DNA of 64,000 nucleotides from Candidatus Latescibacterota bacterium (GTDB lineage Bacteria; Latescibacterota; CBDEFO01), in contig OZ252149.1 in assembly GCA_965248755.1 (NCBI GenBank), forward strand, positions 4,064,001 through 4,128,000, read 5' to 3'. Under the pieces are notes generated by a model. It did no database searches. It had not been told where the DNA came from and saw only the letters and a program-made list of their open reading frames with translations. The translations under genes and the position numbers were made by a program. Shown piece after piece: positions 38,247 to 64,000 of the stretch (position 1 is its first letter; the number at the start of each line of letters is the position of its first letter).

Positions 38247-39704
38247 CTACATAATAGACAGGGCGGACTGTACGGCTAATTCCAAAAGCCACGAGGGCAT
38301 GATGCCGATTTCGATTACTCCGAGGGCACAAAGCGCAAGGGTCAATGACAAAAGGACTGGAGTAGAGGCTCCAACCGCTGTGGATGGAACTTCCTCAGGT
38401 TCACTCATATACATTACTACCACAACTCTCAGGTAGTAGTAAACTGAGATGACGCTATTTACAACAGCGACGATGACCAGTCCTGTAAATCCTGCCTTTA
38501 TTGCCGCTCTGAAGATATAGAACTTCCCTATAAATCCTGCTGTCGGAGGAAATCCCGCAAGCGACATCATAAAAAGGGTCATCAAAAGGGCGACCACGGG
38601 GCGTTTAAATCCGAGACCTGAATACGAGTCAAAGGTGAGGTTCTCTGCTCCTTCTCTTCCCATCATTATCAGGATTCCGAACGCCCCTATATTCATAAGC
38701 GTATAGACTAAAAGGTAGAAGATAAGACTTGAAACGCCCTCCTCTGCCGACGCCACGAGCGCTACCAAAGCATATCCTGCGTGGGCGATGCTCGAATAAG
38801 CCAACATCCTTTTTATATTGTTCTGCGATATGGCTATTACATTTCCCACGGTCATTGTCAATGCGGCGATGACCCACACTATCGCGATCCACTCACCTTG
38901 CATCGCCTCGAACGTAAGCACAAATACCCTCAAAAGGGCGGCGAATCCTGCGGCTTTAGGGCCTGCGGATATAAAAGCCGTGATCGCCGTGGGAGCGCCC
39001 TCATAGACATCCGGAACCCACATGTGAAACGGTACGAGGGCTATCTTAAACCCCAGACCGACGAGGATTAAAAAGCCTCCAACTAAAAGGAGCGGAGATT
39101 CTGCCGCCGTAGTGCTCGATATGTAATCGGTTATGCCCACAAGGTTTGTAGTCCCGCACCCGCCGTAGACGAGAGCCATTCCGTATAATAAGAATCCCGT
39201 GGCAAAGGCCCCCAAAAGAAAATATTTCAGTGCTGCCTCGTTGGAGGCAGGTTCGCGCCTCATGAACCCTGCTAGAATATACTGAGAAATGGACAAAAGT
39301 TCAAGCCCTAAAAAGATCATGATTAAATCCGTCCCCGCAGCTAACAACATCATCCCGACCGTTGCCAAAAGCAGAAGGATGTAATATTCAGCTTTGTCTA
39401 TCTTTTCCCTCTTGACGTAGGTGAGGGAAATCCCAATAGTAAGTGCCGTCCCGATGAGGAATATGATATTGAAGAAGATGGTGTAGTTGTCCAGAGCGAC
39501 CATATTGCTGAAGGATATGTCCTGACTCCCCCACAGTCTGATGGACTGAAAGATAGCCAACATAATCCCTACAAAGCTGAGCAGGGCCGCCTTGCTTCCC
39601 CTCGGAGAGATCATATCTGCGATCATCGCCACAAGAGCCGTGCCCGTAACTATTAGTGCGGGCGAGATGATCGTCCAGTTCATGTCCGGTATGGAGACGT
39701 CCAT
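38247..39704 (-). CDS. nuoN: NADH-quinone oxidoreductase subunit N
   Basis: EAALKYF, FKIALVPFHMWVPDVYEGAP and KRMLAYSSI; the ORF-track extension upstream is repeat DNA. Confidence 0.96.
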   Translation of the reverse strand: MDVSIPDMNWTIISPALIVTGTALVAMIADMISPRGSKAALLSFVGIMLAIFQSIRLWGSQDISFSNMVALDNYTIFFNIIFLIGTALTIGISLTYVKREKIDKAEYYILLLLATVGMMLLAAGTDLIMIFLGLELLSISQYILAGFMRREPASNEAALKYFLLGAFATGFLLYGMALVYGGCGTTNLVGITDYISSTTAAESPLLLVGGFLILVGLGFKIALVPFHMWVPDVYEGAPTAITAFISAGPKAAGFAALLRVFVLTFEAMQGEWIAIVWVIAALTMTVGNVIAISQNNIKRMLAYSSIAHAGYALVALVASAEEGVSSLIFYLLVYTLMNIGAFGILIMMGREGAENLTFDSYSGLGFKRPVVALLMTLFMMSLAGFPPTAGFIGKFYIFRAAIKAGFTGLVIVAVVNSVISVYYYLRVVVVMYMSEPEEVPSTAVGASTPVLLSLTLALCALGVIEIGIMPSWLLELAVQSALSIM

Positions 39705-39709
39705 AAGCA

Positions 39710-39765
39710 AGTAGACAGTAGACAGTAGACAGTAGACAGGGCACATCCTTCCCCCTATCTACTAC
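39710..39765. repeat. (AGTAGAC)x4 tandem heptamer and repeat arm
   Basis: AGTAGACAGTAGACAGTAGACAGTAGACAGGGCAC. Confidence 0.9.
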
Positions 39766-39782
39766 CTATTTGTTTGTTTCCC

Positions 39783-41228
39783 TTAGAAAAAGACGAATGT
39801 AACTACTACAAACAGGGGCATCAAAATCATAACGGAGTAGAGCATAAATCCGAAGAAGCTCGGCATCTTTATTCCGTTTTCCTCTGCGATGGATCTAACC
39901 ATAAAGTTCGGAGCGTTGCCAATATAAGTTGTTGCTCCCATAAAGACTGCACCCGCAGATATAGCTTTGAGGTATATCTCCTGCCGTTCAATGAGCAATT
40001 GCACAGCCTCAAGTTCAGGTATTCCAGGAAAGAAGTTTCCCAAAGCCGTATTCAAGAACGTCAGATAAGTGGGCGCATTATCCAGGAAGCTTGAAAGTAT
40101 CCCCGTAATCCAGAAGTAGTGCCACGGTTCTGTAACCGCCTGTATAAGAGACCCCAGTGCTCCCTCTGTCCCAGCCTTTAATATGGCAAGAGCGGGGATT
40201 ATGCACATAAATATGCCAGCAAATAGATACGCCACCTCTTTTATGGGGAACCACGTAAATCCATTGGCGACTCTGAGTTCTTTCGACGTGAACCTAAGAG
40301 ATAAAAGCCCCATAACTATCAGCGTTATGTCCCTTGCGATATTCTGGATTCCCACGTGGACTCCCGCCAGAGTCACAGCCCCGGGTCTCCACAGGCCACT
40401 CATCAAGACTCCACCTATCACTCCGAAAAGGAATATAAAGTTGTAAAGCCCTTCGATTCTCAGAGGTTTCTTCTCGACTTTTTCTTCTACTTCTATATCC
40501 GTAGGATTAGGTCTTTCGCGTGCATATAGAACACTGTCAATCATATAAAACAATATCAGAAGTAGGATACTGACGAACGCCATGTGCGGGAATAAGTTGA
40601 AAGTCCAGAAAAAGTCGACCCCGTGGAGAAATCCCAAGAATAGGGGTGGATCGCCCAGTGGAGTCAATGATCCTCCTATGTTGCTGACCAGGAATATGAA
40701 GAATACCACAATGTGCAACTTGCTCCTTCTGTGTTCGTTAGCCCTTATAATAGGTCTAATAAGGAGCATTGACGCCCCTGTAGTGCCTACCCAGGACGCT
40801 ATTATTGTGCCTATGAGCAGAATCGTCGTGTTGACGATGGGAGTCCCCTTTAGAGTGCCGCTCACAAGTATCCCGCTGGAGACCGTAAAGAGCGCCCATA
40901 AGAGTATAATAAAGGGTATGTAATCGATTATGTATATATGCAGTATTTCCTGCAGAGCTTCGCCTCCGTAAGCAGCCGTAAAGGGAATGGCAAATATCAA
41001 AGCCCACGCGGCGGAGATCTTTCCGAAATGATGATGCCAGAATATCGGAGCCGCAAGGGGAAAGATAGCGATAGAAAGCAGTAAGCCGACAAAGGGAATG
41101 AGAGACCACAGAGGCAAGACCTTTCCGAGTACAGCTCCAGTGTGATCTTGCCCCTGGCCACTGCTCGCCCCACACGCCACGGGGAGGATCAGAGCAAGTA
41201 CAGCAAGGAACAGAATAAGCCAGCCCAT
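39783..41228 (-). CDS. Putative Na+/H+ antiporter (IT superfamily, CitMHS-like)
   Basis: GTTGASM, SNIGGSLTPLGDPPLFLG, LDNAPTY and YIGNAPNFM; start set at MGWLIL because upstream is repeat DNA. Confidence 0.85.
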   Translation of the reverse strand: MGWLILFLAVLALILPVACGASSGQGQDHTGAVLGKVLPLWSLIPFVGLLLSIAIFPLAAPIFWHHHFGKISAAWALIFAIPFTAAYGGEALQEILHIYIIDYIPFIILLWALFTVSSGILVSGTLKGTPIVNTTILLIGTIIASWVGTTGASMLLIRPIIRANEHRRSKLHIVVFFIFLVSNIGGSLTPLGDPPLFLGFLHGVDFFWTFNLFPHMAFVSILLLILFYMIDSVLYARERPNPTDIEVEEKVEKKPLRIEGLYNFIFLFGVIGGVLMSGLWRPGAVTLAGVHVGIQNIARDITLIVMGLLSLRFTSKELRVANGFTWFPIKEVAYLFAGIFMCIIPALAILKAGTEGALGSLIQAVTEPWHYFWITGILSSFLDNAPTYLTFLNTALGNFFPGIPELEAVQLLIERQEIYLKAISAGAVFMGATTYIGNAPNFMVRSIAEENGIKMPSFFGFMLYSVMILMPLFVVVTFVFF

Positions 41229-41262
41229 TGGACGCCACCGCCCGTTCGCATGAGCCCTCTTA

Positions 41263-41390
41263 AGTAGACGGGGACATCTTATCTCTGTGCTTGAGATAGC
41301 TTCAGGGGATTTCACCTCCCTTGCAATTACAATGCCAGTCCTTTGGTCATTGTGAGCAGAAGGAAGCAATCTCCCTGTATGCTGTCTACT
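41263..41390. repeat. Composite repeat: heptamer arms enclosing a GAGATTGC/GCAATCTC REP-like doublet
   Basis: AGTAGACGGGGACA...GAGATAGCTTC...GCAATTAC...GTCATTGTGAG...GCAATCTC...GCTGTCTACT. Confidence 0.75.
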
Positions 41391-41407
41391 ATTTTGGATC
41401 TCTGTAA

Positions 41408-42967
41408 TCATTTCGATTCGATACTTGAAACCGTGTCCTGGATCGGATCTCTATAGTCCGCATAGGCACTCTTTTCTATTCTGACCTGGTGTAGAACGTG
41501 CTCCACAGAGTGCTCCATTTTGCTCAAGAAGGGTCTGGGATAGACCCCTATGAATATGATCAAGAGGACTATGGGCGCAAGCACAAATATCTCTCTTATG
41601 TTGACGTCTTTCAATCTCCTGTTCTCCTCTTTTGTGATCCCTCCGAACATCACTCTCTGGAACATCCAGAGCATGTAGACAGCAGCGAAAATGAGCCCCG
41701 ACGTGGCGATTACGGCGTATACAATTGCTCCGTCGTTCGCTGAGACGAACGTTCCCAGGAGGATCAGGAACTCCCCGACAAAGCCGTTGAGTCCGGGAAG
41801 CCCTATCGAAGACAGCGTAAATATCAAAAAGAACGAGGCAAATATCGGCATCTGCCTTGAGAGTCCGCCGAACTCCGAGATCAGCCTGGTGTGTCTTCTA
41901 TCGTAGATCATGCCGACGATCAGAAATAGCGCACCTGTGCTCAAGCCGTGATTTATCATCTGAAGTATCCCGCCTGACATCCCCTCAGGCGTGAAGGCAA
42001 ATATCCCTAACATCACAAACCCCAGATGGCTGACGCTCGAATACGCAACTAACTTTTTGAGGTCCTTTTGCATCATCGCCACGAGTGCCCCATAGATTAT
42101 GCCGATGAGAGAAAGGACACATATCAACGGCGTAAAGTGAAAAGACGCTTCGGGAAAGAGGGGCAGGCAGAATCTTATGAATCCGTAAGTCCCCATCTTA
42201 AGCAGCACCCCGGCTAATATCACGCTTCCTGCAGTCGGAGCCTCCACATGGGCGTCAGGAAGCCATGTATGCAGAGGAAATAGGGGAACTTTGATGGCAA
42301 AAGCCAGTGCAAAGGCCAGAAAGAGCCAGTACTGGGTGTTCTTTGAAAGGGGCGTGGCGTAGAGACTCAAAAGGTCGAATGTGTATTGCCCTGTAGCCGT
42401 GTGATTTGCAAAATAGAGCGCAAGGATAGCGACCAACATTAGGGCGCTTCCGGCCATCGTGAAGAGCACGAACTTCATAGCCGCGTAGATTCTCCTTTCG
42501 TGTCCCCAGATCCCTATGATAAAGTACATAGGGATAAGCATCGCCTCCCAGAAGACGAAGAATAAGAACATGTCTAAGGCGCAAAAGACGCCGAGCATCC
42601 CCGCCTCTAAAAGCAGAAGTGAGGCGAAGAAGCCCCTTGTGCTCCTCTGTATAGCCGTCCACGATGCCAGAATGCATATAGGTGTGAGAAATGTAGTTAT
42701 AAGGACCAGAAAGAGACTTATTCCATCTATGCCGAGGTAATAGTTGATGCCGAGTTCTCCTATCCATTCGGACTTCTGGACGAACTGCATGAGGTGTGTG
42801 TCGGGATCGAATTTGAAGAACAGATACAGCGATCCGATAAACTCTACTGTTGAAAAGATGAGGGCGAGCAACCTTATGGCCCCTGCGTTTTCAGCCTTCA
42901 AAAGGGCTAATATAATAGCTCCTGCAAGGGGAAAGAATATGACGAATGTCAGTATCGGAAATTCCAT
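41408..42967 (-). CDS. nuoM: NADH-quinone oxidoreductase subunit M
   Basis: FWEAMLIPMY and HTWLPDAHVEAPTAGS. Confidence 0.97.
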   Translation of the reverse strand: MEFPILTFVIFFPLAGAIILALLKAENAGAIRLLALIFSTVEFIGSLYLFFKFDPDTHLMQFVQKSEWIGELGINYYLGIDGISLFLVLITTFLTPICILASWTAIQRSTRGFFASLLLLEAGMLGVFCALDMFLFFVFWEAMLIPMYFIIGIWGHERRIYAAMKFVLFTMAGSALMLVAILALYFANHTATGQYTFDLLSLYATPLSKNTQYWLFLAFALAFAIKVPLFPLHTWLPDAHVEAPTAGSVILAGVLLKMGTYGFIRFCLPLFPEASFHFTPLICVLSLIGIIYGALVAMMQKDLKKLVAYSSVSHLGFVMLGIFAFTPEGMSGGILQMINHGLSTGALFLIVGMIYDRRHTRLISEFGGLSRQMPIFASFFLIFTLSSIGLPGLNGFVGEFLILLGTFVSANDGAIVYAVIATSGLIFAAVYMLWMFQRVMFGGITKEENRRLKDVNIREIFVLAPIVLLIIFIGVYPRPFLSKMEHSVEHVLHQVRIEKSAYADYRDPIQDTVSSIESK

Positions 42968-42971
42968 TTAT

Positions 42972-43458
42972 CTATTCGCTGCCTTCTGATAACTTCCTTT
43001 CGAGGGCTTCTTCTCTATTGGCAACCTGTTTAATCTGTTCTCTAAGTAACTAAAATTGACCCCTAAACTCCTCTCTGAGATTCTCTTGAGATCTGGCTTC
43101 TTTGACGTTTCTGGAGATCTTAAAAGTTATAGCTAAAATAGCTACAAATAGGACAAGGACACCTAATCCTCCGAAAAGCCCCATCATAGTCGAACTAATA
43201 TCATCCACTCTTTTTTCAATCTCTGCTAATCCCCCTTGAAGGTTTGAGCTCCTCGATTCTAGGCTGACCATGCGTTCTTCCAGTGCGGTTAGACGCTCAT
43301 CATATACGTTTGTCCATACCCCTCAACTTCACCATCACGTCATTGAGCGTGTATTTGGATGATTCCTGTGCATAGACAGGAGCTATACACAAAAGACACG
43401 TTACTTAGGAAGATAGCAACTTTAATAGGAAGATAGCAACTTTTAGAGGTATTCTCAT
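42972..43458 (-). pseudogene. Decayed exported coiled-coil/one-TM protein between nuoL and nuoM
   Basis: GGGAGA-ATG; signal-like MRIPLKVAIFL...VTCLLCIAPVYA interrupted by a ~20-bp tandem duplication that creates TAA; frameshift near 43300; premature TAG at 43050. Confidence 0.6.
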
Positions 43459-43474
43459 TTCTCCCAACTTTCTG

Positions 43475-43497
43475 CCCCCGATTGAATCTATCGGGGG
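43475..43497. repeat. CCCCGA...TCGGGG palindrome
   Basis: CCCCCGATTGAATCTATCGGGGG downstream of nuoL. Confidence 0.9.
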
Positions 43498-43522
43498 CTA
43501 CTGTATGCCTGTTATGCCCTAC

Positions 43523-45397
43523 CTATCTCAGAAAGTAGTATCCAAGTATTACGACTGTTCCCAGGACCATGGCGAGGGCGTAGTTTTGTATATAGCCCGA
43601 CTGCACTCGTTTCAGGACAGCGCTAAAGCCTCTTACAAAAAGTCCCACTCCGTTGACTATGCCGTCTATTATCCACATGTCAAACACGTTCGCAAGGAAG
43701 GTCGCAAATCCCCTGAAAGGGGCCAAGATGAGTGCATTGTATATTTCGTCCACGTAGTATTTGTTGGCCACAAGGATATACAGATCTCCCGCTCTATCGG
43801 CGATCTCCTCCGGCTTGATATAGCGTTTGATATAGATTATGTATGCCAGACCTATTCCCGCAAGTGCAAGGAGAACCGATATGGCAATAAGTGCCCCTTC
43901 AGAAAGCAGGGCAAACCCAGCACCCACTTCGGCTTGGGGTACTATTGCTCTCTCCAGAAAACTGTGTAACGGGCTGTGCTCTCCCATTCCGACCCAGCCA
44001 GCGATGACCGAAAATACAGCCAGAATGACCAGAGGGACGGTCATAATACGAGGCGACTCGTGGACGTGCGGTTCAACCTCAGGTTCTACTCTGGACTCTC
44101 CGAAGAAGGTCATAAATATTAGTCTGAACATGTAGAACGCTGTGAGAAACGCTGTAGCCGCACCCAGTGCCCATATCCCTATATTGCCTGAGGCGTACGC
44201 CTTTGATAGGATCTCGTCCTTGCTCCAGAATCCGCTCAAGGGAGGAATCCCCGAGATCGCAAGCGCTCCTATTATGAAAGTCCAGGCCGTAATCTTCATC
44301 TTTGAATAGAGGCCGCCCATCTTTCTCATGTCCAGTTCGTCCGACATAGCGTGCATCACGCTTCCTGCTGTCAGGAACATAAGCCCCTTGAAAAAGGCGT
44401 GCGTCATAAGGTGGAATATCCCGACGGAGTATGCTCCTATTCCCACAGCGATGAACATATATCCCAATTGGCTGACTGTGGAATAGGCCAGGACTCTCTT
44501 TATGTCGTTAGTTGTCAAAGCGATAGTCGCTGCGAATATCGCGGTGAAAGCGCCTATTAGAGCCACTACTTCCATTGAGAAGGGCGCAAGGTTATACAGG
44601 ACGTAAGAACGGGCGACCATGTAGACTCCCGCTGTGACCATCGTGGCGGCGTGTATGAGCGAACTTACGGGCGTTGGACCTTCCATCGCATCGGGCAGCC
44701 ATACGTAGAGAGGAAACTGAGCCGACTTGCCGACTGCGCCCATGAAGAGTAGCAGCGTTATGGCAGTGGCAACTCCTTGTGAGAGTTCCGTCGGAGCTGT
44801 GGAAAAGACGTCCACGAATTTCAGCGTTCCGAGGTGCATAAATATCAAAAAGAGCCCAAGAATAAAACCGAAGTCGCCGATCCTGTTGACTATAAATGCC
44901 TTTTTGCCCGCGTCGGAGGCGGACTTTTTCTCGTACCAAAATCCTATGAGCAGATACGAACAGAGTCCTACAGCCTCCCATCCGACGAACATCAAGAGGT
45001 AGTTGTTGGCAAGTACTAAAACGAGCATCGAAAAGACGAACAGATTCAGATATGTAAAGTATCTTGCGTATCCCCTGTCCCCGCGCATGTAGCCTATCGA
45101 ATAGATGTGTATGCATAGACTCACAGTAGTAACAACAAGGATCATCACTGCCGAAAGTTCGTCGAGCTTGAATCCGACTGTGGCTTCAAAACTTCCTGCC
45201 GCTATCCAACTATAAAGGTCGCCATCGAATACTTTTCCTTTTACCACGTCAAGAAAGGCTTTAATAGAGCAGAGCCAGGACAAGCCAATGGCTACGTTGG
45301 CAATATACGCGCTCTTTTCCCTGAGTTTACTCCCGAAGAGTCCGTTTATAAGAACTCCAGATAGGGGAAATAAGATTATCAATAGGATTAAGTTCAT
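43523..45397 (-). CDS. nuoL: NADH-quinone oxidoreductase subunit L
   Basis: GKSAQFPL.VWLPDAMEGPTPVS and HAFFKG. Confidence 0.97.
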   Translation of the reverse strand: MNLILLIILFPLSGVLINGLFGSKLREKSAYIANVAIGLSWLCSIKAFLDVVKGKVFDGDLYSWIAAGSFEATVGFKLDELSAVMILVVTTVSLCIHIYSIGYMRGDRGYARYFTYLNLFVFSMLVLVLANNYLLMFVGWEAVGLCSYLLIGFWYEKKSASDAGKKAFIVNRIGDFGFILGLFLIFMHLGTLKFVDVFSTAPTELSQGVATAITLLLFMGAVGKSAQFPLYVWLPDAMEGPTPVSSLIHAATMVTAGVYMVARSYVLYNLAPFSMEVVALIGAFTAIFAATIALTTNDIKRVLAYSTVSQLGYMFIAVGIGAYSVGIFHLMTHAFFKGLMFLTAGSVMHAMSDELDMRKMGGLYSKMKITAWTFIIGALAISGIPPLSGFWSKDEILSKAYASGNIGIWALGAATAFLTAFYMFRLIFMTFFGESRVEPEVEPHVHESPRIMTVPLVILAVFSVIAGWVGMGEHSPLHSFLERAIVPQAEVGAGFALLSEGALIAISVLLALAGIGLAYIIYIKRYIKPEEIADRAGDLYILVANKYYVDEIYNALILAPFRGFATFLANVFDMWIIDGIVNGVGLFVRGFSAVLKRVQSGYIQNYALAMVLGTVVILGYYFLR

Positions 45398-45415
45398 CTC
45401 AGGCTACCCTTAAAT

Positions 45416-45460
45416 AGTAGACAGCGTACAGGGACGGGAGGAGGTGCCCCCTGTCTACTT
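45416..45460. repeat. Short AGTAGAC...GTCTACT inverted-repeat unit
   Basis: AGTAGACAGCGTACAGGG...GGTGCCCCCTGTCTACT. Confidence 0.8.
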
Positions 45461-45463
45461 GTC

Positions 45464-45766
45464 TTACCATTTCATCAGATTTATCTCATCCACGTTTATG
45501 GTCTCTTTATTTCTATATATAGCTATAATAATGGCGAGTCCGACGGCCACTTCTGCGGCTGCGACGGCCATTATAAAGAATACAAAGACCTGTCCAGAAG
45601 GTGAGTTCAGATATTTAGAAAACGCTATAAAGGCTAAATTTGCTGAGTTCAACATCAACTCCACACACATAAATATTACTATTGCGTTTCTTCTGGTTAG
45701 GACACCGATTACTCCAATTGAAAAGAGCACGCCGGAAAGGAGAAGATAATAGGAAAGCGGTATCAT
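45464..45766 (-). CDS. nuoK: NADH-quinone oxidoreductase subunit K
   Basis: VELMLN and [10 protein letters not shown]. Confidence 0.97.
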
Positions 45767-46509
45767 TTTACCTCCTTCCCCGATGGGCGCTCGCGCTTTG
45801 CAAGGACTACAGCTCCGATGAGTGCTACCAGCAGGATCATGGATGCCACCTCGAACGGCAGTAGATAGTCCGTAAAGAGGAGCTTGCCCATAGTTTCAGC
45901 CGTTCCGATTCCTGTTATCTCGATATAGTTTTCCCACCGTACAAATATCAGATTGTTGGCGTTGACGATCAGTTGAAGAGCACGCGCCCAGGGGAGATTC
46001 TCTATCTCTATCCCTATGGGAGTAGTACGAGCTTTAGGATCAGTGATTGGAATGCTTGCTACCTTCTCTATTATCGTAAGGGCCTCGTTGAAAGGAACAT
46101 CGGGGCTCAAAGACATGAGCTCTTGTCCGATCTCCGAAGGAGGAATCGTAGTCTGCAGATCTTCTAGGGGCGACGCCCATTGTGCGATGCTCCCAAATTC
46201 GGCTATTAAAAGGACGGCGAGTCCTATTCCGACCAAGGACCCGTATTTGAGCCTTTCTCTGCCTGCGTCTGGACGACCTAAATTGAGGAGCATGATCACA
46301 AAGAGAAAAAGAACCATTATCGCCCCGGCGTAGACCAGGACCTGCACAGCCGCTATTAGCTCTGCTCCTAAAAGAAGAAACAATCCCGCCATAAAAAAGA
46401 AGGTCACAACTAATGAAAGGGCGCTGTATAGGGGATTTCGGAATATTACGACGAAAAGGGCGGAGATGAGGGCAATCGTTGCGAAGATGAAAAAAAGTGT
46501 TTCCATCAC
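45763..46509 (-). CDS. nuoJ: NADH-quinone oxidoreductase subunit J with an internal soluble domain
   Basis: [19 protein letters not shown] and [17 protein letters not shown]; about 70 extra residues between TM4 and TM5. Confidence 0.93.
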
Positions 46510-46511
46510 CT

Positions 46512-47540
46512 TTACGAGATCAACATTATGACGGTTCCCGTCACAAATATATTAAGCAGAGCCAGCGGAAGAAATACTTTCCATCCCAGGTTCATCAACT
46601 GGTCGTATCTAAATCTGGGCAGCGTCCACCGCACCCAGATAAACAGGAAAAGAAAGAATCCTGTTTTGATTACGAAGGACAAGAGCTTCAGAATGCTTGG
46701 CAGAAGTGATGTCGAGTCAGGGGATATGATCCAGGGCACGTTCCACCCTCCAAAGAAGAGCGTGACCATAAGGGCAGATGATGTGACCATATTTGCGTAT
46801 TCGGCCATATAGAACATTGTGAACTTCATGCTGCTGTACTCAGTGTGATATCCTGCCACGAGCTCCTGCTCCGCTTCAGCGAGGTCGAAGGGCAATCTAT
46901 TAGTCTCGGCGAACGCTGCGATCATAAAGAGCACAAAACCCAAAGGTTGTGTCAAGACGTTCCATTTCGGGATGAAGCCCCAATATCCCGATTGGAATTC
47001 CACCACGTCGTTGAGCCTCAAAGACCCTGTCATCATAAGGACACCAACTATAGAAAGCCCCAGGGCAAGCTCATAGCTTATCATCTGCGCAGAAGCACGC
47101 AGCCCGCCCAAAAGGGAATATTTGTTGTTGGACGCCCAACCCCCCAGGACAATCCCGTAGACCCCCAGTGAGGTAATAGCCAGTATATAGAGAATGCCTA
47201 CGTTTATATCGGCGATTTGAAGCTTTATGTCTCTTCCGAGCAGGGGGAGAGTATCCCCGAAAGGTATCACGGCAAATGTTATAAGAGCGGGGATCAAGAC
47301 CACCGCAGGAGCCATAACGTATATTACTCGGTCCACGTGATTCGGGATTATGTCCTCCTTAAAGAGGAACTTGAGTCCGTCGGCAACCGGCTGCAATAAT
47401 CCGAATGGACCCACTCTGTTGGGGCCGAGCCTGTCCTGTATGAAACCGCTTATCCTCCGTTCGGCAAGTGACAAATAAGCAACTGTGGTAAGCATAGCTC
47501 CCAGCACTACAACTATCTTGATTGTCAACTCTATTATCAG
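46512..47540 (-). CDS. nuoH: NADH-quinone oxidoreductase subunit H
   Basis: RLGPNRVGP, QMISYE, ETNRLPFD and RFRYDQLM; start uncertain (CTG 47540 or TTG 47528). Confidence 0.96.
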   Translation of the reverse strand: MIIELTIKIVVVLGAMLTTVAYLSLAERRISGFIQDRLGPNRVGPFGLLQPVADGLKFLFKEDIIPNHVDRVIYVMAPAVVLIPALITFAVIPFGDTLPLLGRDIKLQIADINVGILYILAITSLGVYGIVLGGWASNNKYSLLGGLRASAQMISYELALGLSIVGVLMMTGSLRLNDVVEFQSGYWGFIPKWNVLTQPLGFVLFMIAAFAETNRLPFDLAEAEQELVAGYHTEYSSMKFTMFYMAEYANMVTSSALMVTLFFGGWNVPWIISPDSTSLLPSILKLLSFVIKTGFFLFLFIWVRWTLPRFRYDQLMNLGWKVFLPLALLNIFVTGTVIMLIS

Positions 47541-48052
47541 GGTTCCATCTCCTCAATTTTCCTCAAGGCCTCGGGGACTTCATATAGAGAAGTGACCTTT
47601 GTCGTCGGCTCTGCTTCGGGGCCATCAGCGTCTATAGGGAACCGGTCGTTCCACCTGTGCAATATACATTTGATGCCGTATCGGTTGGCTCCCACGATGT
47701 CCGTATCCACCCTGTCTCCGATCATTACGACTTCGGACGGTTCTAATGTAAGGCGATCCAATGCGACTTGGAATATCCCGGGGTGGGGCTTGTCAGAACC
47801 TACGTCCACAGACGTTATCACGGCTTCAAACTTATCCTTCCAACCCATTATCTCAAGCGCTCTTTGTATATCGGGTTCACGAGATGTGATCGTGTTGCTA
47901 ACAAGGGCGAGTCTATATCTTCCTGACAGGTATTCGATAAGCTCGTCTGCGCCCTCTACCTTCAAGAAGACATCCTTTTGCCATATCGATAGGCCGCTGT
48001 CATCCTCGGCCATCAATGTATCTCCGAAGTCGAAAAATATTGCCTTGATCAT
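47537..48052 (-). CDS. HAD-family hydrolase
   Basis: FFDFGDTL, LVSN, KPHPGIF and IGDRVDTD. Confidence 0.9.
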   Translation of the reverse strand: MIKAIFFDFGDTLMAEDDSGLSIWQKDVFLKVEGADELIEYLSGRYRLALVSNTITSREPDIQRALEIMGWKDKFEAVITSVDVGSDKPHPGIFQVALDRLTLEPSEVVMIGDRVDTDIVGANRYGIKCILHRWNDRFPIDADGPEAEPTTKVTSLYEVPEALRKIEEMEP

Positions 48053-48143
48053 TTTGCCGAATGGGCAAACACCGCAGGGCGCTGGCCCGCGTGTGTGTCC
48101 TGAAATATGGATAAATCGGTCGAACACACAGGTTCGCCGCTAC

Positions 48144-49448
48144 TTATTTAAAGGGGCATCTACCGAGCTTTACGTGCTCGTGGAACTCGTCTTTGAACTT
48201 GAGGACAAATCCAGCCGAAGGCCAGGCAAACGCCGCTCCGAAAGCGCAGACCGTTGTGAAGGGGAGCTTCATAAATCCGCATACGTTTTCCGCTACATCG
48301 ACTATTAAATCCATATCTTTCATCCGGCCATTTCCCTTTTCGATTCTCTCAGCTATGTTTCTTATCCAGGGCGCACCTTCTCTGCACGGAGTACACTGAC
48401 CGCACGACTCGTGAGCATAAAACTTCATAATGTTCAAAAGAGCGTCCACCATACAGACCGTCTCGTCCATCACTATAACTGCACCTGTCCCGATGTGGCT
48501 CATCACAGACCCACCACCCAGCGAAAAGGACTCCGGCGTCATCTCCACATCCAGATCATCGGGTCCCAGTGGCGGATAGGAAGATCCCCCAGGCAGGACA
48601 GCTTTCAGTTCATGCCCGTCCCTTGTACCGCCGGCGTAGCCGTAGATTATGTCCCTTAGAGGAGTGCCCATCTCAAGCTCGTATATCCCCGGTCTTTTTA
48701 CGTGCCCGCTTACGCAGAACACAGATGTCCCTGGCGTCTCTTGTGCACCGATACCCCTGAACCAATCTGCTCCGTTGTTGACTATTTGAGGTACATAGGC
48801 CAGAGTCATCACATTGTTCACCGTGGTGGGACATCCGAATATGCCCCTTTGGGCTGGAAATGGGGGTTTTATTCGTGGGTATGGCCTTTTTCCCTCTAAA
48901 GACTCCATAAGCCCCGTCTCCTCGCCGCAGATGTACGCCCCTGCTCCGAGATGGACGTACATATCCAAGCTGTAATCCGTGCCCAATATGTTTTTGCCCA
49001 GAAATCCCCTTTCGTAGGCCTCTTCTATGCACTTTTCTATCAGCTCTATCGTGTTGAACATCTCCCCGCGTATATAGTAGTAGCAGGTGCTGACCCTCAT
49101 AGCGTAGGATGCGATTATTGAGCCTTCGATAGTAAGGTGAGGATCGCCCTCCATAAGGACTCGGTCCTTGAACGACCCTGGTTCGCTCTCGTCCGCATTT
49201 ACACACAGATAGGAGGGGACCTTGGGCTCTTTGGGCATAAAATTCCATTTTAAGCCGGTCGCAAACCAGGCGCCGCCTCTCCCTTTGAGCTTAGATCTAT
49301 CCACGTCCTCTATGACCTGGTCGGGAGTCATCTTACTCAAAGCCTTTTCGAGGGCTTTGTATCCACCGTGCTCTATATAGACGTCTATATCCTGTATGTT
49401 GGGGACGTCAACATTTTTGAGAAGAATTCTCTTTTCTGGCATATGCAC
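48144..49448 (-). CDS. nuoF: NADH-quinone oxidoreductase subunit F
   Basis: NADESEPG, GAYICGEETGL and ESCGQCTPCREG. Confidence 0.95.
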   Translation of the reverse strand: MHMPEKRILLKNVDVPNIQDIDVYIEHGGYKALEKALSKMTPDQVIEDVDRSKLKGRGGAWFATGLKWNFMPKEPKVPSYLCVNADESEPGSFKDRVLMEGDPHLTIEGSIIASYAMRVSTCYYYIRGEMFNTIELIEKCIEEAYERGFLGKNILGTDYSLDMYVHLGAGAYICGEETGLMESLEGKRPYPRIKPPFPAQRGIFGCPTTVNNVMTLAYVPQIVNNGADWFRGIGAQETPGTSVFCVSGHVKRPGIYELEMGTPLRDIIYGYAGGTRDGHELKAVLPGGSSYPPLGPDDLDVEMTPESFSLGGGSVMSHIGTGAVIVMDETVCMVDALLNIMKFYAHESCGQCTPCREGAPWIRNIAERIEKGNGRMKDMDLIVDVAENVCGFMKLPFTTVCAFGAAFAWPSAGFVLKFKDEFHEHVKLGRCPFK

Positions 49449-49497
49449 TAATAGAGTAAATATTAATCAGTAGGGAGGGCGCACTGCCTCTCTTCCC

Positions 49498-49676
49498 TTG
49501 AGATTGCCCTCGATTGAACCCCCGACAGATTCAATCGGGGGTCGGGGATTGCTTCGGGGGTCTGCTCATCGTAATGACAGAAGCCGAGAACAAAACAATG
49601 TCATTGCGATTCTCCTGAACTGCTATTCAGAGCAGACCAATCTCAGTCAGACTGCCTCTCGGCGTTTGCTGTCTAT
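49498..49676. repeat. Composite repeat: REP-like doublet containing nested palindromes (49507-49547)
   Basis: GAGATTG[CCCTCGATTGAA[CCCCCGACAGATTCAATCGGGGG]TCGGGG]ATTGCTTCG...CGTAATGACA...TGTCATTGCGA...CAATCTC...GCTGTCTA. Confidence 0.85.
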
Positions 49677-49681
49677 CTTTC

Positions 49682-50167
49682 TCATTCCAATTTATCCAGA
49701 ATCCCGTCCACGTTCTCGTCCGTCAGATTCTGGTACAGGTCTTCGTTTACCAGCATCACAGGGGCCGTCCCGCAGGAGGCGAGGCATTCCACTTTTTCTA
49801 TCGAGAACCTCTTATCACCAGTCGTCTCCCCGATCTCCACTCTGAGTTTCTCTTTCAGATGTTGAACTAATGTCCTGGATCCTGTAAGCGCACAGCTTAA
49901 TGTGCTGCACACCCTTATATGATATTTCCCCACGGGCTTCGTTTTGAGCATAGGATAGAAGCTCACCACCGCGGCGACCCTCACAGGAGGTATCTCTAAA
50001 AGATCGGCGACGTACTTTTGAGCTTCTACGGTAAGGTAGCCCCCCATTTCATTTTGCACAACATGGAGGACGGGGATCATAGCGGCCTGTTTGTCGGGGT
50101 ATCTGGATATTATCCTTTGCAGATGTCCCTCAGTTTCCTTGGAGATATCCACTCTGTTCTGCATCAT
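49682..50167 (-). CDS. nuoE: NADH-quinone oxidoreductase subunit E
   Basis: CSTLSC...ECLASC 2Fe-2S motif. Confidence 0.95.
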   Translation of the reverse strand: MMQNRVDISKETEGHLQRIISRYPDKQAAMIPVLHVVQNEMGGYLTVEAQKYVADLLEIPPVRVAAVVSFYPMLKTKPVGKYHIRVCSTLSCALTGSRTLVQHLKEKLRVEIGETTGDKRFSIEKVECLASCGTAPVMLVNEDLYQNLTDENVDGILDKLE

Positions 50168-51906
50168 CTATCGAGCTCTCCTGCGATGATGTTGAGACTC
50201 CCAAGGACAGCCACGATGTCTGAGTACATATGTCCTTTGATCATATGAGGGAAGGCTTGATAGTTGATAAAGGACGGGGGTCTTACTCTTACTCTGTAGG
50301 GGAATCCGCTTCCGTCGCTGACTATGTAGAACCCGAGTTCGCCGTTGGGGGATTCTGTGCTGGAGTAGATCTCAGCTTTGGGGGGCTCTATCCCGTGCCC
50401 TGTCATTATAAGTTTGAAGTGGTGAATGAGCGATTCCATCCTGTTATAGACCTCATCCTTTTCGGGGAGTATGACTTTCGCGTCCGGTACTTTGACTGGT
50501 CCGTCGGGTAGATTCTCCATAGCCTGTTTTACTATGTTGTTGCTCTGGATCATCTCCTCCATCCTGACAAGGTAACGGTCGTAGGCGTCGCCGTTGTCGC
50601 CTGTGGGGATCTCAAATTCAAATTCCTCGTAAGAAGAATAGGGTTCGGCTTTTCTTATATCCCATTCAACGCCTGATCCTCTGAGAATGGGTCCTGTAAG
50701 GCTGTAGGATATTGCGTCTTCGGCTGAGATTACGCCTATGCCCTTTGTCCTGTCGATCCATATTCTATTTTTGGTCAAAAGGTCATCTATATCTTTGAGT
50801 CTCTTCGGAAAGTGTCTTGTGAAGTCTTCGACCATCTCCTTGAAGTTCTCAGGGACGTCCTCAAATAGCCCTCCGACTCTCGTATAGCTTGTGGTCAGCC
50901 TCGTACCTGTAACGGCATCAAAGATATCGTAGAGCTTTTCTCTCTCTTTGAAGGCCCACAGAAAGGCCGTAAACGCCCCCAGATCCAGAGCCGCCGTTCC
51001 GAGCCATACTACGTGATCGGATATTCTGGAAAGTTCATAGAGGATGACTCTGATGTATTGGGCTCTTTTGGGCACCTCGATGTCCAAAAGCTTCTCCACA
51101 GCTATCGCATATCCGATGTTATTAGATAGGGGAGACATGTAGTTCATCCTGTCCGTCAAGGTGATGAACTGGTTGTAGTCGAGGTTTTCGCCGAGCTTTT
51201 CGAACCCCGTGTGGAGGTAGCCTATGTCGGGTATAACGTTGACCACCTTTTCTCCGTCCAGTTCGAGGACGAGCCTCAAAGTCCCATGGGTGGCCGGATG
51301 CTGCGGTCCGAAGTTCAACACCATCCTCTCACCGGAGAGCCTGTCGCCTTCGGTCTCCGATTTGCCTGCTATCTTTTCGACTGTGGACATTGAGATTTCA
51401 TCAAATCCGGGATCGGGATTGGCTATCCTGTCCCTTTCCCCCCTGCCTCTTAAGGGATAGTCCTTTCTTAGAGGATAGCCCTCAAAGTCTGAGGGCATCA
51501 GTATCCTTCTTAAGTCCGGATGTCCCTTGAACTTGATCCCGAACATGTCGTAGACTTCCCTTTCGGTCCAGATTGCCCCCATCCATATAGGCAAAACTGA
51601 GTCAAGAGTGGGGTCAGATTCTTCAACGGGAACTTTAACCCTGAGCCTCTGTCCTGTTTTGTAGGAGTAGAGATGATAGACCACGGAGAACCTTGGATGT
51701 CTGTCCATCGCGAGGTAGTCTACGCAGGAGAGGTCCACAAGATAGTCATACTGAAGGTCTGGGTCTTCCTTGAGGAATTTGAGGAGGTCGAAGGATCTCT
51801 GTTTGTTTATGTTTAAAGTGGTCTCATCCCTGAAATCTTCGACTTCAAGCAGAGCGCCGGAAAATCGGGAGTTTATCTTATCTATAGCTGATGTATCGTC
51901 GCCCAT
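50164..51906 (-). CDS. nuoCD: Fused NADH-quinone oxidoreductase subunit C/D
   Basis: EREVYDMFGI...LRKDYP (C), then GPQHPATHG, DRMNY and GELDR (D). Confidence 0.95.
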   Translation of the reverse strand: MGDDTSAIDKINSRFSGALLEVEDFRDETTLNINKQRSFDLLKFLKEDPDLQYDYLVDLSCVDYLAMDRHPRFSVVYHLYSYKTGQRLRVKVPVEESDPTLDSVLPIWMGAIWTEREVYDMFGIKFKGHPDLRRILMPSDFEGYPLRKDYPLRGRGERDRIANPDPGFDEISMSTVEKIAGKSETEGDRLSGERMVLNFGPQHPATHGTLRLVLELDGEKVVNVIPDIGYLHTGFEKLGENLDYNQFITLTDRMNYMSPLSNNIGYAIAVEKLLDIEVPKRAQYIRVILYELSRISDHVVWLGTAALDLGAFTAFLWAFKEREKLYDIFDAVTGTRLTTSYTRVGGLFEDVPENFKEMVEDFTRHFPKRLKDIDDLLTKNRIWIDRTKGIGVISAEDAISYSLTGPILRGSGVEWDIRKAEPYSSYEEFEFEIPTGDNGDAYDRYLVRMEEMIQSNNIVKQAMENLPDGPVKVPDAKVILPEKDEVYNRMESLIHHFKLIMTGHGIEPPKAEIYSSTESPNGELGFYIVSDGSGFPYRVRVRPPSFINYQAFPHMIKGHMYSDIVAVLGSLNIIAGELDR

Positions 51907-51934
51907 AGCATTTCTTGGACAGAACCCAGGAGAC

Positions 51935-52300
51935 CTAATCCCAGTCCAATCCACCTTTTCTCCATACGTACAAAAAGCCGATGAAGAGTACGCCGATAAA
52001 AGCCGCCATCTCTATAAATATAAATGATCCTAGAGGCAGCAGTTTTCTGAAAACTACCGCCCAGGGATATAGAAAGACCACTTCTATATCGAATATGATA
52101 AATATTATGGCGATAAAATAAAATTTCACCGAGAATCTGAGCCTTGCATCTCCAACAGGAGGGACTCCTGATTCGTAAGGTGAAAGCTTAATACTGTCGC
52201 TTTTTCTGGGTCCGAAAAGATAGCTGGTCAGCAGAATAGCAGCGGCAAGGCCGACAGCTATTATCAAAAGCAGAAGTATAGGAAGATAGTCACTTGGCAT
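51935..52300 (-). CDS. nuoA: NADH-quinone oxidoreductase subunit A
   Basis: PYESG and FDIEVVFLYPWA. Confidence 0.97.
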   Translation of the reverse strand: MPSDYLPILLLLIIAVGLAAAILLTSYLFGPRKSDSIKLSPYESGVPPVGDARLRFSVKFYFIAIIFIIFDIEVVFLYPWAVVFRKLLPLGSFIFIEMAAFIGVLFIGFLYVWRKGGLDWD

Positions 52301-61945: not shown

Positions 61946-64000
61946 CTACTCCGCCAATAGCTCTTCCACATTTTGTTGGAAAATGAGCTTGTCCGATGGC
62001 ACACCTACATAGGCATAGCGCACGACCCCCTTTTTATCGATCACGAAGGTCGTCGGGATAGCCGAGATGTCTCCGTAGTCCTCTCGCACCTTCTTGTCCG
62101 CCATCAGGAGGGGATAGTTGATCTTGTTCTCGGTCGCAAAGGACCGCACCACATAAGGGTCTTTGTCGGTAGAGATACCGATCATCGTGAATGCCTCGGA
62201 GGCATATTGGGACTGGAGGGCGATGAAGCCAGGTATCTCCGCCCGGCAGGGTCCACACCAGGTAGCCCAGAAGTTCACGATCATCACTTTGCCTTCGAAA
62301 TCAGCCAGTTTTACCTCATTGTCGTCTGTGTCCTTCAGCACAAAATCAGGCGCCGGCTTGCCGACAAAGTCCGACTTGTCTCTACTGGGCATACCTCTGC
62401 TGGGTCCACCCGGACGCCCAAACTGTTCGACGAGCTTTGCCTCCTCAGGCGGAGTGAAGGTGAAAGTTTCCTCGGAGAATACAGGATCAATCTCTACAGC
62501 GGTATGGCGCTCCTTGAAGCCGATCTTCATCACTTCCATCCAAGACCACCTCTCCTTCGGCGTTCCCTCGGTCATCTGTCCAATATCCATCTTGAAGGCA
62601 ACCTGTCGGATCATGAAGTCCTTCTCCCCAATCCACAGCTGAACTTTGATTGGTTTATCCATTCCTGGGCCAGCGTTCTTCTGGTAGCTCCACAACATGC
62701 CGGTCCGAAGCAACCGAGGTGGTTTCGTCAGCTCGACGATGGTTGTGGGAATGCTAGCTAATTCTTCGTGTCCTACCTTCTCGACCTCCTCTACACCCTC
62801 CATCAGGGCTCTGAGTGGGTCATCGCTCATTATTATCTTCTGTACGAATATACTTCTAGTCTGTTCTGCCATAGTCAGGTCATCAGCCGTTAGCTTCTCC
62901 GGGGCATTCTTCTGCGTGTACTGATTCCACATTCGCTGGTAAGTCACCAGCATTTTCCCATCGCTAACTACCGCTATATCTCTCATCGGCATGCCTTTGA
63001 TTTCAAGTCGGATGTGGTTGGGACGCTGGAAGGAGAACGGCATCCGTGTAATCCTGCGCATGTCCATCCAAGGCTGCACAGTTTGTATCTCCAAGGTAGT
63101 CGTGTCTTGGTAGCTGAGGAGTGACTGGTACGCGGCCATAGATCGCTCCAGAATCTTGGGCAGCTTGATCGGAGTCACTTCAAAATCGGCATTAGTCTGC
63201 TGCCCCGGACGTACAGTGAGCCCTGCCACCTCCGAAGGCTCCATGCCCTGTCCGCCACGCACCCTCAAGGTGTACTCCCCGGGCATCAACATTATATGGT
63301 ACTGTCCTTCTGCGTCGGTATGGGCACTCCCCGCCGGCTGATCTCCTCGGTAGGCTTCGATCACCAATCCGGCATAGGGCTCCTCCTCCTTAGTAACCGT
63401 GCCTGCGATAGAGCTCAGATCGCCGTCAATTGGTAGCAGAACGAAGTCAGCAGCAAGATCAACGTTGCGCCAGACTTCGTGCATGGGGGGAAAATCATAC
63501 GACCCCTCGTAGGCCTCAGAGGTATCGTAATCCTTGAACAGAAACCCGACGTGTATAATCTTCCCTTCCTCTAGATCTACTATTGTGCTCGAATCAGGAC
63601 CGCCAGGACTCAGGAACTCCCATGGGGTTACCATAAACTCATAAGTATAAGTACCATGTCCTCCTGTTTCGCCTGTGCGTGTCCAGCCTGTCTTTAGATA
63701 ATCAGGAGCAAGGTCCCCTGTCCCGTCCGTCAGCCACCAGAAGGTGCCATCGTCCAGAAAGTACATAAAGCTGTAATAACCGTCTATAGGTGGTACAAGC
63801 ATGGTGTAGAGCTGGCCAGTCGTATAGAACAACTGCTCTTGCTCTTTTCGAGGTAAGTATCTCCAGTCATTCTCATGAGGTAAGTATTTCCAGTGATTCT
63901 CATCAGGTAAGTATTTCCAGTCATTCTTGAAGAGCTCTCCGCCGCTGTGGTCAGCATCGAGCACGAAGTTAATGTCGTCGTCCCAGTTATAATCTGAGGC
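61946..64000 (-). CDS. Multidomain protein (partial): probable sugar-binding domain, carboxypeptidase-regulatory-like, LolA/DUF2092-like and C-terminal TlpA redoxin domains
   Basis: NFWATWCGPC and IPTTFVID; frame open to the window end; N-terminal domain calls are tentative. Confidence 0.8.
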   Translation of the reverse strand, partial: ASDYNWDDDINFVLDADHSGGELFKNDWKYLPDENHWKYLPHENDWRYLPRKEQEQLFYTTGQLYTMLVPPIDGYYSFMYFLDDGTFWWLTDGTGDLAPDYLKTGWTRTGETGGHGTYTYEFMVTPWEFLSPGGPDSSTIVDLEEGKIIHVGFLFKDYDTSEAYEGSYDFPPMHEVWRNVDLAADFVLLPIDGDLSSIAGTVTKEEEPYAGLVIEAYRGDQPAGSAHTDAEGQYHIMLMPGEYTLRVRGGQGMEPSEVAGLTVRPGQQTNADFEVTPIKLPKILERSMAAYQSLLSYQDTTTLEIQTVQPWMDMRRITRMPFSFQRPNHIRLEIKGMPMRDIAVVSDGKMLVTYQRMWNQYTQKNAPEKLTADDLTMAEQTRSIFVQKIIMSDDPLRALMEGVEEVEKVGHEELASIPTTIVELTKPPRLLRTGMLWSYQKNAGPGMDKPIKVQLWIGEKDFMIRQVAFKMDIGQMTEGTPKERWSWMEVMKIGFKERHTAVEIDPVFSEETFTFTPPEEAKLVEQFGRPGGPSRGMPSRDKSDFVGKPAPDFVLKDTDDNEVKLADFEGKVMIVNFWATWCGPCRAEIPGFIALQSQYASEAFTMIGISTDKDPYVVRSFATENKINYPLLMADKKVREDYGDISAIPTTFVIDKKGVVRYAYVGVPSDKLIFQQNVEELLAE

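Follow-up and report, generated by a model that had tools for sequence, protein, structure and literature searches.

A secretin N0-like domain inserted in a loop of the complex I subunit NuoJ in a Latescibacterota bacterium, with the apparent donor gene still in the genome

The N0 domains of secretins normally fold in the periplasm. N0 is equated with the STN domain (PMC7545093). The first strand and helix of PilQ N0 form the face that binds PilP (PMC3441751), and GspC binds GspD likewise, in a complex that is solved (PMC3169554). NuoJ, a membrane subunit of respiratory complex I, has five helices and a TM3-TM4 loop that lies at the peripheral arm (PMC10212512). A lineage-specific addition to a core subunit of this enzyme is the N-terminal extension of NuoC in Bacillaceae (PMC3144371). 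Further, heterologous DNA from within the same genome can be integrated at microhomologies by SPDIR, which is reported to leave patches of 3 to about 100 bp (bioRxiv 10.1101/2023.11.22.568220).

The locus described here lies in a window of 64,000 nucleotides (the whole stretch of DNA that was analysed) from a Candidatus Latescibacterota bacterium. It shares with canonical NuoJ, Nqo10 and ND6 (PF00499) five predicted helices, the TM3 and TM5 motifs and the position between nuoH and nuoK, but it has 75 extra residues that apparently make up a globular domain in the TM4-TM5 loop. The predicted fold of this domain is that of the N0 domains of PilQ (PDB 4AR0, 4AV2; STN PF07660), GspD and EscC, and it appears to descend from a secretin N-terminus. 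Unlike in PilQ and GspD, it sits in a loop of an inner-membrane respiratory subunit, with both ends tied, in one copy per complex and with no outer-membrane ring. The NuoC extension in Bacillaceae and a NuoJ insert of the P0025 type (see below) are also additions to a core subunit in a single lineage, the latter on the same outward loop; in contrast to these, the present insert can be recognised as a folded domain, and the donor gene survives in the genome at 86% nucleotide identity. Compared with SPDIR, the microhomology at both ends is alike, whereas the patch of 225 bp exceeds the range about twofold; a second capture of 90-93 bp is within it. In general, in-frame insertion of a domain into a permissive loop is an event of a known kind. 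The host, the donor and the freshness are unusual here, and the case is apparently undescribed: the earlier note on this DNA knew of no example, and a search of the literature, limited to main texts and largely to open journals, found no described secretin-domain insertion in NuoJ.

The gene is an open frame of 248 codons at 45763..46509 on the minus strand, starting with GTG, or with the next ATG (247 codons). Its protein matches PF00499 in two stretches (145.4 bits, cut-off 33.2, E 1.3e-42), and the best of the NCBIfam NuoJ models gives 140.9, below the equivalog cut-off of 154; by PF00499 and its place between nuoH and nuoK, the protein is NuoJ. TM1 to TM4 cover residues 2-111 (46177..46506, minus strand), with model helices at residues 2-22, 26-46, 51-75 and 88-111 and with the conserved TM3 motif. 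A short helix and TM5, with a conserved motif of their own, are placed by alignment and model helices at residues 204-239 (45793..45900, minus strand), and this part is identical in the window genome (G000) and in a sister genome (G001). The insert is found between TM4 and TM5, where the earlier note had placed it. The peptide on which that note was based is residues 130-198 (45916-46122), within 3 bases of the coordinates given there; the exact limits of the insert are residues 128-202, 75 residues or 225 nt at 45904..46128 on the minus strand, and its nature as a secretin domain is backed by blastn, BLASTP, fold searches and a tree. When it is taken out, NuoJ has 172 residues, an ordinary length, and its flanks rejoin as a normal loop in comparison with 56 ordinary NuoJ (60-row alignment). 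The five membrane helices of the fused protein are predicted with a pLDDT per block of 62-81, and the TM3 and TM5 motifs are intact in the 60-row alignment. The full-length model as a whole is poor (pLDDT 59, pTM 0.41) and has low confidence in the insert; it is used for helix limits only and is uninformative on the packing of the inserted domain.

Upstream of nuoJ lies nuoH (46512..47528, minus strand, PF00146), and downstream nuoK (45464..45766, minus strand, PF00420), which overlaps the nuoJ stop. The complex I operon runs on the minus strand through nuoA, a fused nuoCD, nuoE, nuoF, a HAD hydrolase gene and nuoH, and continues with nuoJ, nuoK, nuoL, nuoM, a transporter gene and nuoN; ATP synthase genes come next. 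This is the order nuoH-J-K-L-M-N of a NuoJ-type gene, with no nuoI between H and J and with extra genes between L, M and N. The operon (38247-52300) lacks nuoB, nuoG and nuoI, which are elsewhere in the genome: nuoB matches at G000:C1:710810 and 1634771, a nuoG-type match at G000:C1:1634264, and nuoI-type matches at G000:C1:2747785 and 711855. A second membrane-arm operon, nuoA-H-J-K-(ankyrin-like gene)-L-M-N, is located at C1:2105500-2113900 of the same genome, and its nuoJ is insert-free. The neighbouring nuo genes in the window are intact, with dN far below dS between the two genomes. Over the N-terminal portion of fused nuoJ 13 synonymous and 3 amino-acid changes separate them (dN/dS 0.07), indicating that the gene is not decaying.

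Some other features of the window may be mentioned. The HAD hydrolase gene is located between nuoF and nuoH, and the transporter gene between nuoM and nuoN is of the CitMHS_2 type. A small coiled-coil frame with a single membrane helix, between nuoL and nuoM (43050-43400, minus strand), is broken by stops, and G001 has an insertion sequence at this site. At 56393-58249 (plus strand) there is an internalin-like leucine-rich repeat protein with a signal-peptide-like start.

The earlier note had assumed that the insert is on the outer face of complex I, and the charges of NuoJ agree with this. The TM3-TM4 loop (4 K/R) and the C-tail (5 K/R) are basic, while the TM4-TM5 loop, with 6 K/R and 13 D/E, is acidic. 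Given this positive-inside pattern, and with the TM3-TM4 loop on the side of the peripheral arm, the TM4-TM5 loop should be periplasmic, and the inserted domain would face the periplasm.

A DNA search of the whole genome (4.54 Mb) gives a single other match to the insert below E 0.9: 194 of 225 nt, gapless and in frame (E 2e-71). This match, at G000:C1:about 1134526-1134751 (minus strand), corresponds to residues 39-113 of a secretin of 397 residues, about 3 Mb from nuoJ. The two copies differ at 31 nt (86% nucleotide identity), and 59 of 75 residues are the same (79%, BLASTP). The donor protein has a hydrophobic N-terminus and the secretin domain PF00263 (E 2e-26), and is the sole match to PF00263 in the genome; the fused NuoJ chain lacks this domain and is therefore not a secretin. 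In a tree of 71 rows and 79 columns, few enough that the deeper forks are unsure, insert and donor form one clade (100/99) inside the secretins of their own phylum, and a 4-residue deletion is common to the insert, the donor and the nearest secretins. The comparison with the genome's own secretin N-terminus that the earlier note proposed has thus identified the donor: as read from the sequence, the insert is an in-frame copy of the N0 domain of the only secretin in the genome. Nothing points to a mobile element or an intein, as the insert has no transposase or Hint match in Pfam and its one other genomic copy is in the secretin.

At the 5' junction (46126..46131, minus strand) lies the host hexamer ATCGGA (Ile-Gly), of which 4 bases are common to the donor, and at the 3' junction (45904..45909, minus strand) the hexamer is repeated, with 5 bases common to the donor. 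Outside both junctions the identity to the donor drops to 2-5 of 15. No host sequence was lost, and the insert is bounded by a direct repeat of 6 bases that would permit clean excision. Microhomology at both ends suggests illegitimate recombination, with the reservation that matches this short can be due to chance; an insertion via annealing at microhomologies, as in SPDIR, would fit these junctions. The host NuoJ has no close relatives, and among the next rows, 1.7 changes per column away, an empty ancestral nuoJ allele was not seen.

Next, the fold of the insert was predicted using 72 secretin N-termini as alignment, so that 72 of its 73 rows are true secretins. The model (pLDDT 92.5, pTM 0.81) is a small alpha/beta fold with the order strand, helix, strands, helix, hairpin. 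The two best Foldseek matches are to PilQ N0 (4ar0 and 4av2; E 5e-4/6e-4, TM 0.75-0.77). In a wide structure search 15 chains, mostly N0/STN domains, are found at a Z of at least 8. The N0 domains of EscC, PilQ and GspD superpose on the model at Z 8.8-9.7 (rmsd 1.8-2.5, 69-76 residues), those of PilQ, by VIA, at Z 8.8-9.2 (rmsd 2.2-2.5 over 74-76 residues). The fold is also that of FecR-type and phage baseplate domains, and these tie with the N0 matches. A profile search with the insert family finds PilQ chains at E 4e-6 to 6e-3. Both the insert (16.9 bits, E 0.0058) and the donor (16.5 bits) are below the cut-off of 28.4 bits of Pfam STN (PF07660), which is matched at E 0.1 or better by 34 of the 73 aligned relatives (best 3.9e-9). 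In the ESM Atlas the insert finds STN clusters at 0.88-0.90, to be taken as a lead only, and the whole fused protein gave no usable match there. The N0/STN-like identity that the earlier note had recognised from a pattern of residues is borne out by the PilQ profile match and the top Foldseek matches, and we conclude from profile and model that the insert carries a complete secretin N0 domain.

How widespread is the fusion? An N0 profile matches 25 of 168 genomes of the phylum at 27 places: 24 are in frames with a secretin domain, one is cut by a contig end and two are the NuoJ fusions. Just two of the 168 genomes thus showed the fusion, and the two belong to one genus. Among 208 distinct NuoJ (212 collected) the median distance from the TM3 to the TM5 motif is 86, compared with 158 in the fusions. 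It exceeds 110 in nine of them: the two fusions, one internal duplication, and six with an unrelated insert of about 45 residues. These six (P0025, P0045, P0063, P0090, P0099 and P0103) belong to another lineage and carry the insert in the same loop; as 6 of 208 NuoJ have such an addition there, the TM4-TM5 loop appears to be permissive. When the N0 profile is run on the NuoJ set only the two fusions match (E 4e-25), the next best being 2.4.

Wider searches for other NuoJ with the domain also gave the same-genus fusion only. A word search with the whole protein scored 8000 candidates, and among the best 120 of these P0003 alone is a full-length match. With the N0 region of the donor, at lengths 218-695, there are 2 matches among 42 candidates and no other fusion. 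HMMER against 1.84 billion representatives gives 38 matches and no other fusion; ten were read, with P0129 as the sole piece of NuoJ, while for the remaining 28 only their length and the position of the match were considered. In a metagenome scan none of the best 80 of at least 597 stretches is fused (longest match 564 nt). The counts of fusions are lower bounds, since an ordinary NuoJ representative may stand for a cluster with a fused member. The donor secretin family is itself widespread, with members in KSB1, Calditrichota, Ignavibacteria, Cloacimonadota and kin among the best 80 of 272 confirmed stretches.

The fusion is present in more than one data set; the genomes, proteins and runs below are not counted as mutually independent. 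The sister genome carries this fusion too; within the insert it differs by a single synonymous change and by no amino acid. A 90% protein cluster has four members, of which three are full length with an identical insert protein; the fourth looks like a frameshifted half, and so does P0129. Of 19 public runs that contain matching sequence, four were compared with the gene. In run X5 a single contig goes across the whole gene (32 differences in 1450 bases), in X6 two contigs bridge both junctions, and in X8 the 5' junction lies within one contig; X1 is identical to the window at every letter and may not be independent. None of the four runs lists a joint that skips the insert, although contigs drop rare variants. 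Three runs (X1, X6 and X8) also have a second contig of lower depth over the insert that resembles the donor; depth does not equal copy number.

The donor secretin belongs to a cluster resembling that of a type IV pilus. Two genes there are PilB- and PilC-like by their best NCBIfam matches, which are under the cut-offs, and another encodes an Ig-repeat protein; position and pattern suggest PilM/N- and PilO/P-like genes as well. The gene upstream of the secretin (G000:C1:1134868-1135815) is an apparent fusion of a PilO-like part and a PilP/GspC-like C-terminal domain. It has about 99 relatives in the loci examined, and for the PilP-like domain no match was found in Pfam, NCBIfam or PDB, and no solved structure or family. 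The region of the Ig-repeat gene is interrupted by an insertion sequence of 1.63 kb (G000:C1:1145680-1147310) with dozens of near-identical copies, and 27% of this genome is covered by self-matches.

In the sister genome 27.8 kb of the pilus and secretin cluster (compared with G000:C1:1132070-1159850) are cleanly deleted, and the flanks are joined on one contig, C3 near 20410 (L049:19412-19420). The deletion cuts the pilC-like gene and a dehydrogenase gene and joins them directly, and both the secretin and its PilP-like partner are gone. Neither PF00263 nor DNA of the deleted part was found elsewhere in this genome (96% complete; for the other half of the cluster 40 of 502 candidates were scored).

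The same genome provides a second capture. Two paralogous genes contain, in frame, 90 and 93 nt of the 3' part of the secretin (about residues 315-344), 85% and 80% identical to it, at the start of a carboxypeptidase-regulatory-like domain (C4:345791-345879, L042, and C8:1970693-1970772, L041). The orthologue in the window has an empty site at 63382..63391 (minus strand). A piece of this size is too short for a domain and its host gene is unrelated, indicating that captures happen here without obvious purpose, and it backs the recombination route for the nuoJ insert. The same 1.2 kb secretin gene has served twice as donor.

A general habit of fragment capture is not supported by scans of the two genomes, in which no other clean case was seen among the candidates read. 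G000 has 160 low-copy repeat pairs, of which 51 are without wider protein homology; one is the nuoJ case, and no clean internal capture was seen among the 17 of the other 50 that were read. Of 72 in-frame inserts relative to paralogues four are low-copy candidates, which in position and size resemble repeats shared by large paralogous proteins. Across 107 kb of G001 two of six indels are the secretin piece, in loci that were chosen because of that piece. Two further repeats were observed. The C-terminus of a 586-codon frame is 80% identical in DNA to the C-terminal 98 residues of another gene, presumably DnaX-like (G000:C1:2258707-2258996 and 26069-26358), possibly another capture, at a protein end. 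Elsewhere a frame begins with a copy, 86% identical in DNA, of the last 98 codons of the gene before it (G000:C1:4008892-4009185, 4009322-4009615).

Between insert and donor dS is 0.34 and dN 0.11 (dN/dS 0.32). The pooled dS between the two genomes is 0.09 over 43 frames, which places the separation from the donor before that of the strains. When mapped with nine near outgroups, five amino-acid differences fall on the insert, six on the donor, and five are ambiguous; the tree branches are 0.15 for the insert and 0.20 for the donor, and a profile built without either gives them 73.8 and 71.0 bits. By these measures the insert has changed no faster than the donor, with a constraint like that of a working secretin domain. 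With 30-50% of the synonymous distance assigned to the insert branch, 16-26 amino-acid-changing substitutions are expected under neutrality and 7-10 are seen (P 1e-5 to 0.06); at a share of 20% neutrality is not rejected (P 0.13-0.44). The constraint may have been earned as a secretin, if the piece came from a diverged allele. Several otherwise conserved positions have changed on the insert branch (I/V to M, G to S, I/V to T), and the donor branch too has such changes. In the first strand and helix of the insert (residues 128-149, the known partner face) 3 of 22 positions differ from the donor. The comparison of the two genomes says little about the insert, as it lies in a tract of low divergence with one synonymous difference in 53 sites.

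The reading that we favour, with a probability of roughly 0.55, is that the insert is a folded and tolerated periplasmic appendage, most likely not a pilus link. A 225-nt stretch from the genome's own secretin gene or from a closely related allele would have been pasted in frame into nuoJ by illegitimate recombination, using microhomologies of 4-5 bases and without loss of host sequence. This piece would happen to hold a whole N0 domain, built for folding in the periplasm, and would have landed in the one NuoJ loop that is both periplasmic and tolerant of additions. NuoJ presumably keeps its five helices and works as usual, and N0 would project from the outer face of the membrane arm like a small folded knob. 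The knob would stay folded by selection, since misfolding of the loop would be costly for NuoJ insertion or assembly, but it would need no partner. The insert-free nuoJ of the second nuoAHJKLMN operon could have buffered the first steps. We infer the recombination route, the periplasmic side, the expression, the assembly and the absence of a dedicated function. The changes at well-kept sites on the insert branch are what would be expected if the binding role is gone. The donor-like constraint, the retention of the insert despite an excisable repeat, the near-unchanged partner face and the complex prediction described below count against an appendage, and would fit a useful role equally.

Alternatively, N0 could be a working periplasmic docking module that was recruited by complex I and binds a PilP-like or a new partner, a reading that we hold only tentatively. 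Taken by itself, co-option for a non-pilus job is possible but on the doubtful side. The domain would then be a lid that stabilises the outer face of NuoJ, NuoK and NuoA, or would dock another periplasmic protein by the edge strand with which N0/STN folds hold their partners. The constraint equal to that of the donor speaks for this, as does the deficit of amino-acid changes at a 30-50% share; the test fails, however, at a share of 20%, and an origin from a diverged allele would put most of the constraint in the secretin life of the piece. The identical insert protein in all three full-length cluster members and the retention of the insert after the loss of the pilus cluster also fit, and the N0/STN fold is an interaction module in many systems. 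On the other hand the strain comparison has little power for the insert, the operon has no candidate partner gene, and the fusion is present in 2 of 168 genomes of the phylum.

It is unlikely that the insert still binds the PilP/GspC-like domain encoded upstream of the secretin, as a tether of complex I to the pilus machine or as a decoy. The PilP-binding face is nearly unchanged, and the window genome has both genes. A complex prediction of insert and PilP-like domain is weakly in favour, reaching 0.50 against 0.01 for the best of three controls, with at least 96% of contacts in agreement between runs and a partner pLDDT of at least 86. Of 157 solved complexes 116 passed the mark used, as did 2 of 215 mismatches, but those that passed with a score of 0.60 or under are only 18 of the 157 and both mismatches. 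As GspC-GspD-like complexes are solved and 72 of 73 alignment rows are true secretins, the pass may reflect family likeness only, and the PilP-like label is itself deduced for a domain that has no Pfam, NCBIfam or PDB match. Further, the pilus motor runs on ATP and nothing calls for a tether. The sister genome has lost secretin, pilus cluster and partner gene while its insert protein is unchanged, which weakens the case for a needed pilus link. The link to an envelope machine that the earlier note suggested is for this reason not well supported, and the fusion was found in one genus only.

That the insertion disabled NuoJ, with the open frame as a relic and the cell relying on the second membrane-arm operon, is very unlikely: this operon has an insert-free nuoJ and the operon in the window lacks nuoB, nuoG and nuoI, but the dN/dS of 0.07 in the N-terminal part, the intact TM3 and TM5 motifs and the intact neighbouring nuo genes oppose decay. 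An assembly chimera of nuoJ and the secretin gene, which the earlier note had named as a risk and for which the donor is at hand in the same genome, is refuted by the 31 of 225 bases that differ from the donor, by the fusion in a sister genome that is without the donor, and by contigs of other studies that bridge the junctions.

Domain insertions into an essential membrane enzyme are usually inferred long after the donor is lost. Here one can still see the donor and the junctions, along with a paralogue that has no insert, a sister genome that lacks the donor and a second capture from this gene, and the start and the fixation of a new domain architecture become datable and testable. NuoJ has room for an entire folded domain in its TM4-TM5 loop, and this loop is a natural tagging site for complex I. 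If a partner does bind to the domain, bacterial complex I would have a periplasmic accessory site not described before. Should it be a true docking module, a core respiratory subunit would have acquired from a secretion machine a domain for protein binding, seen at a stage when the donor is still 86% identical.
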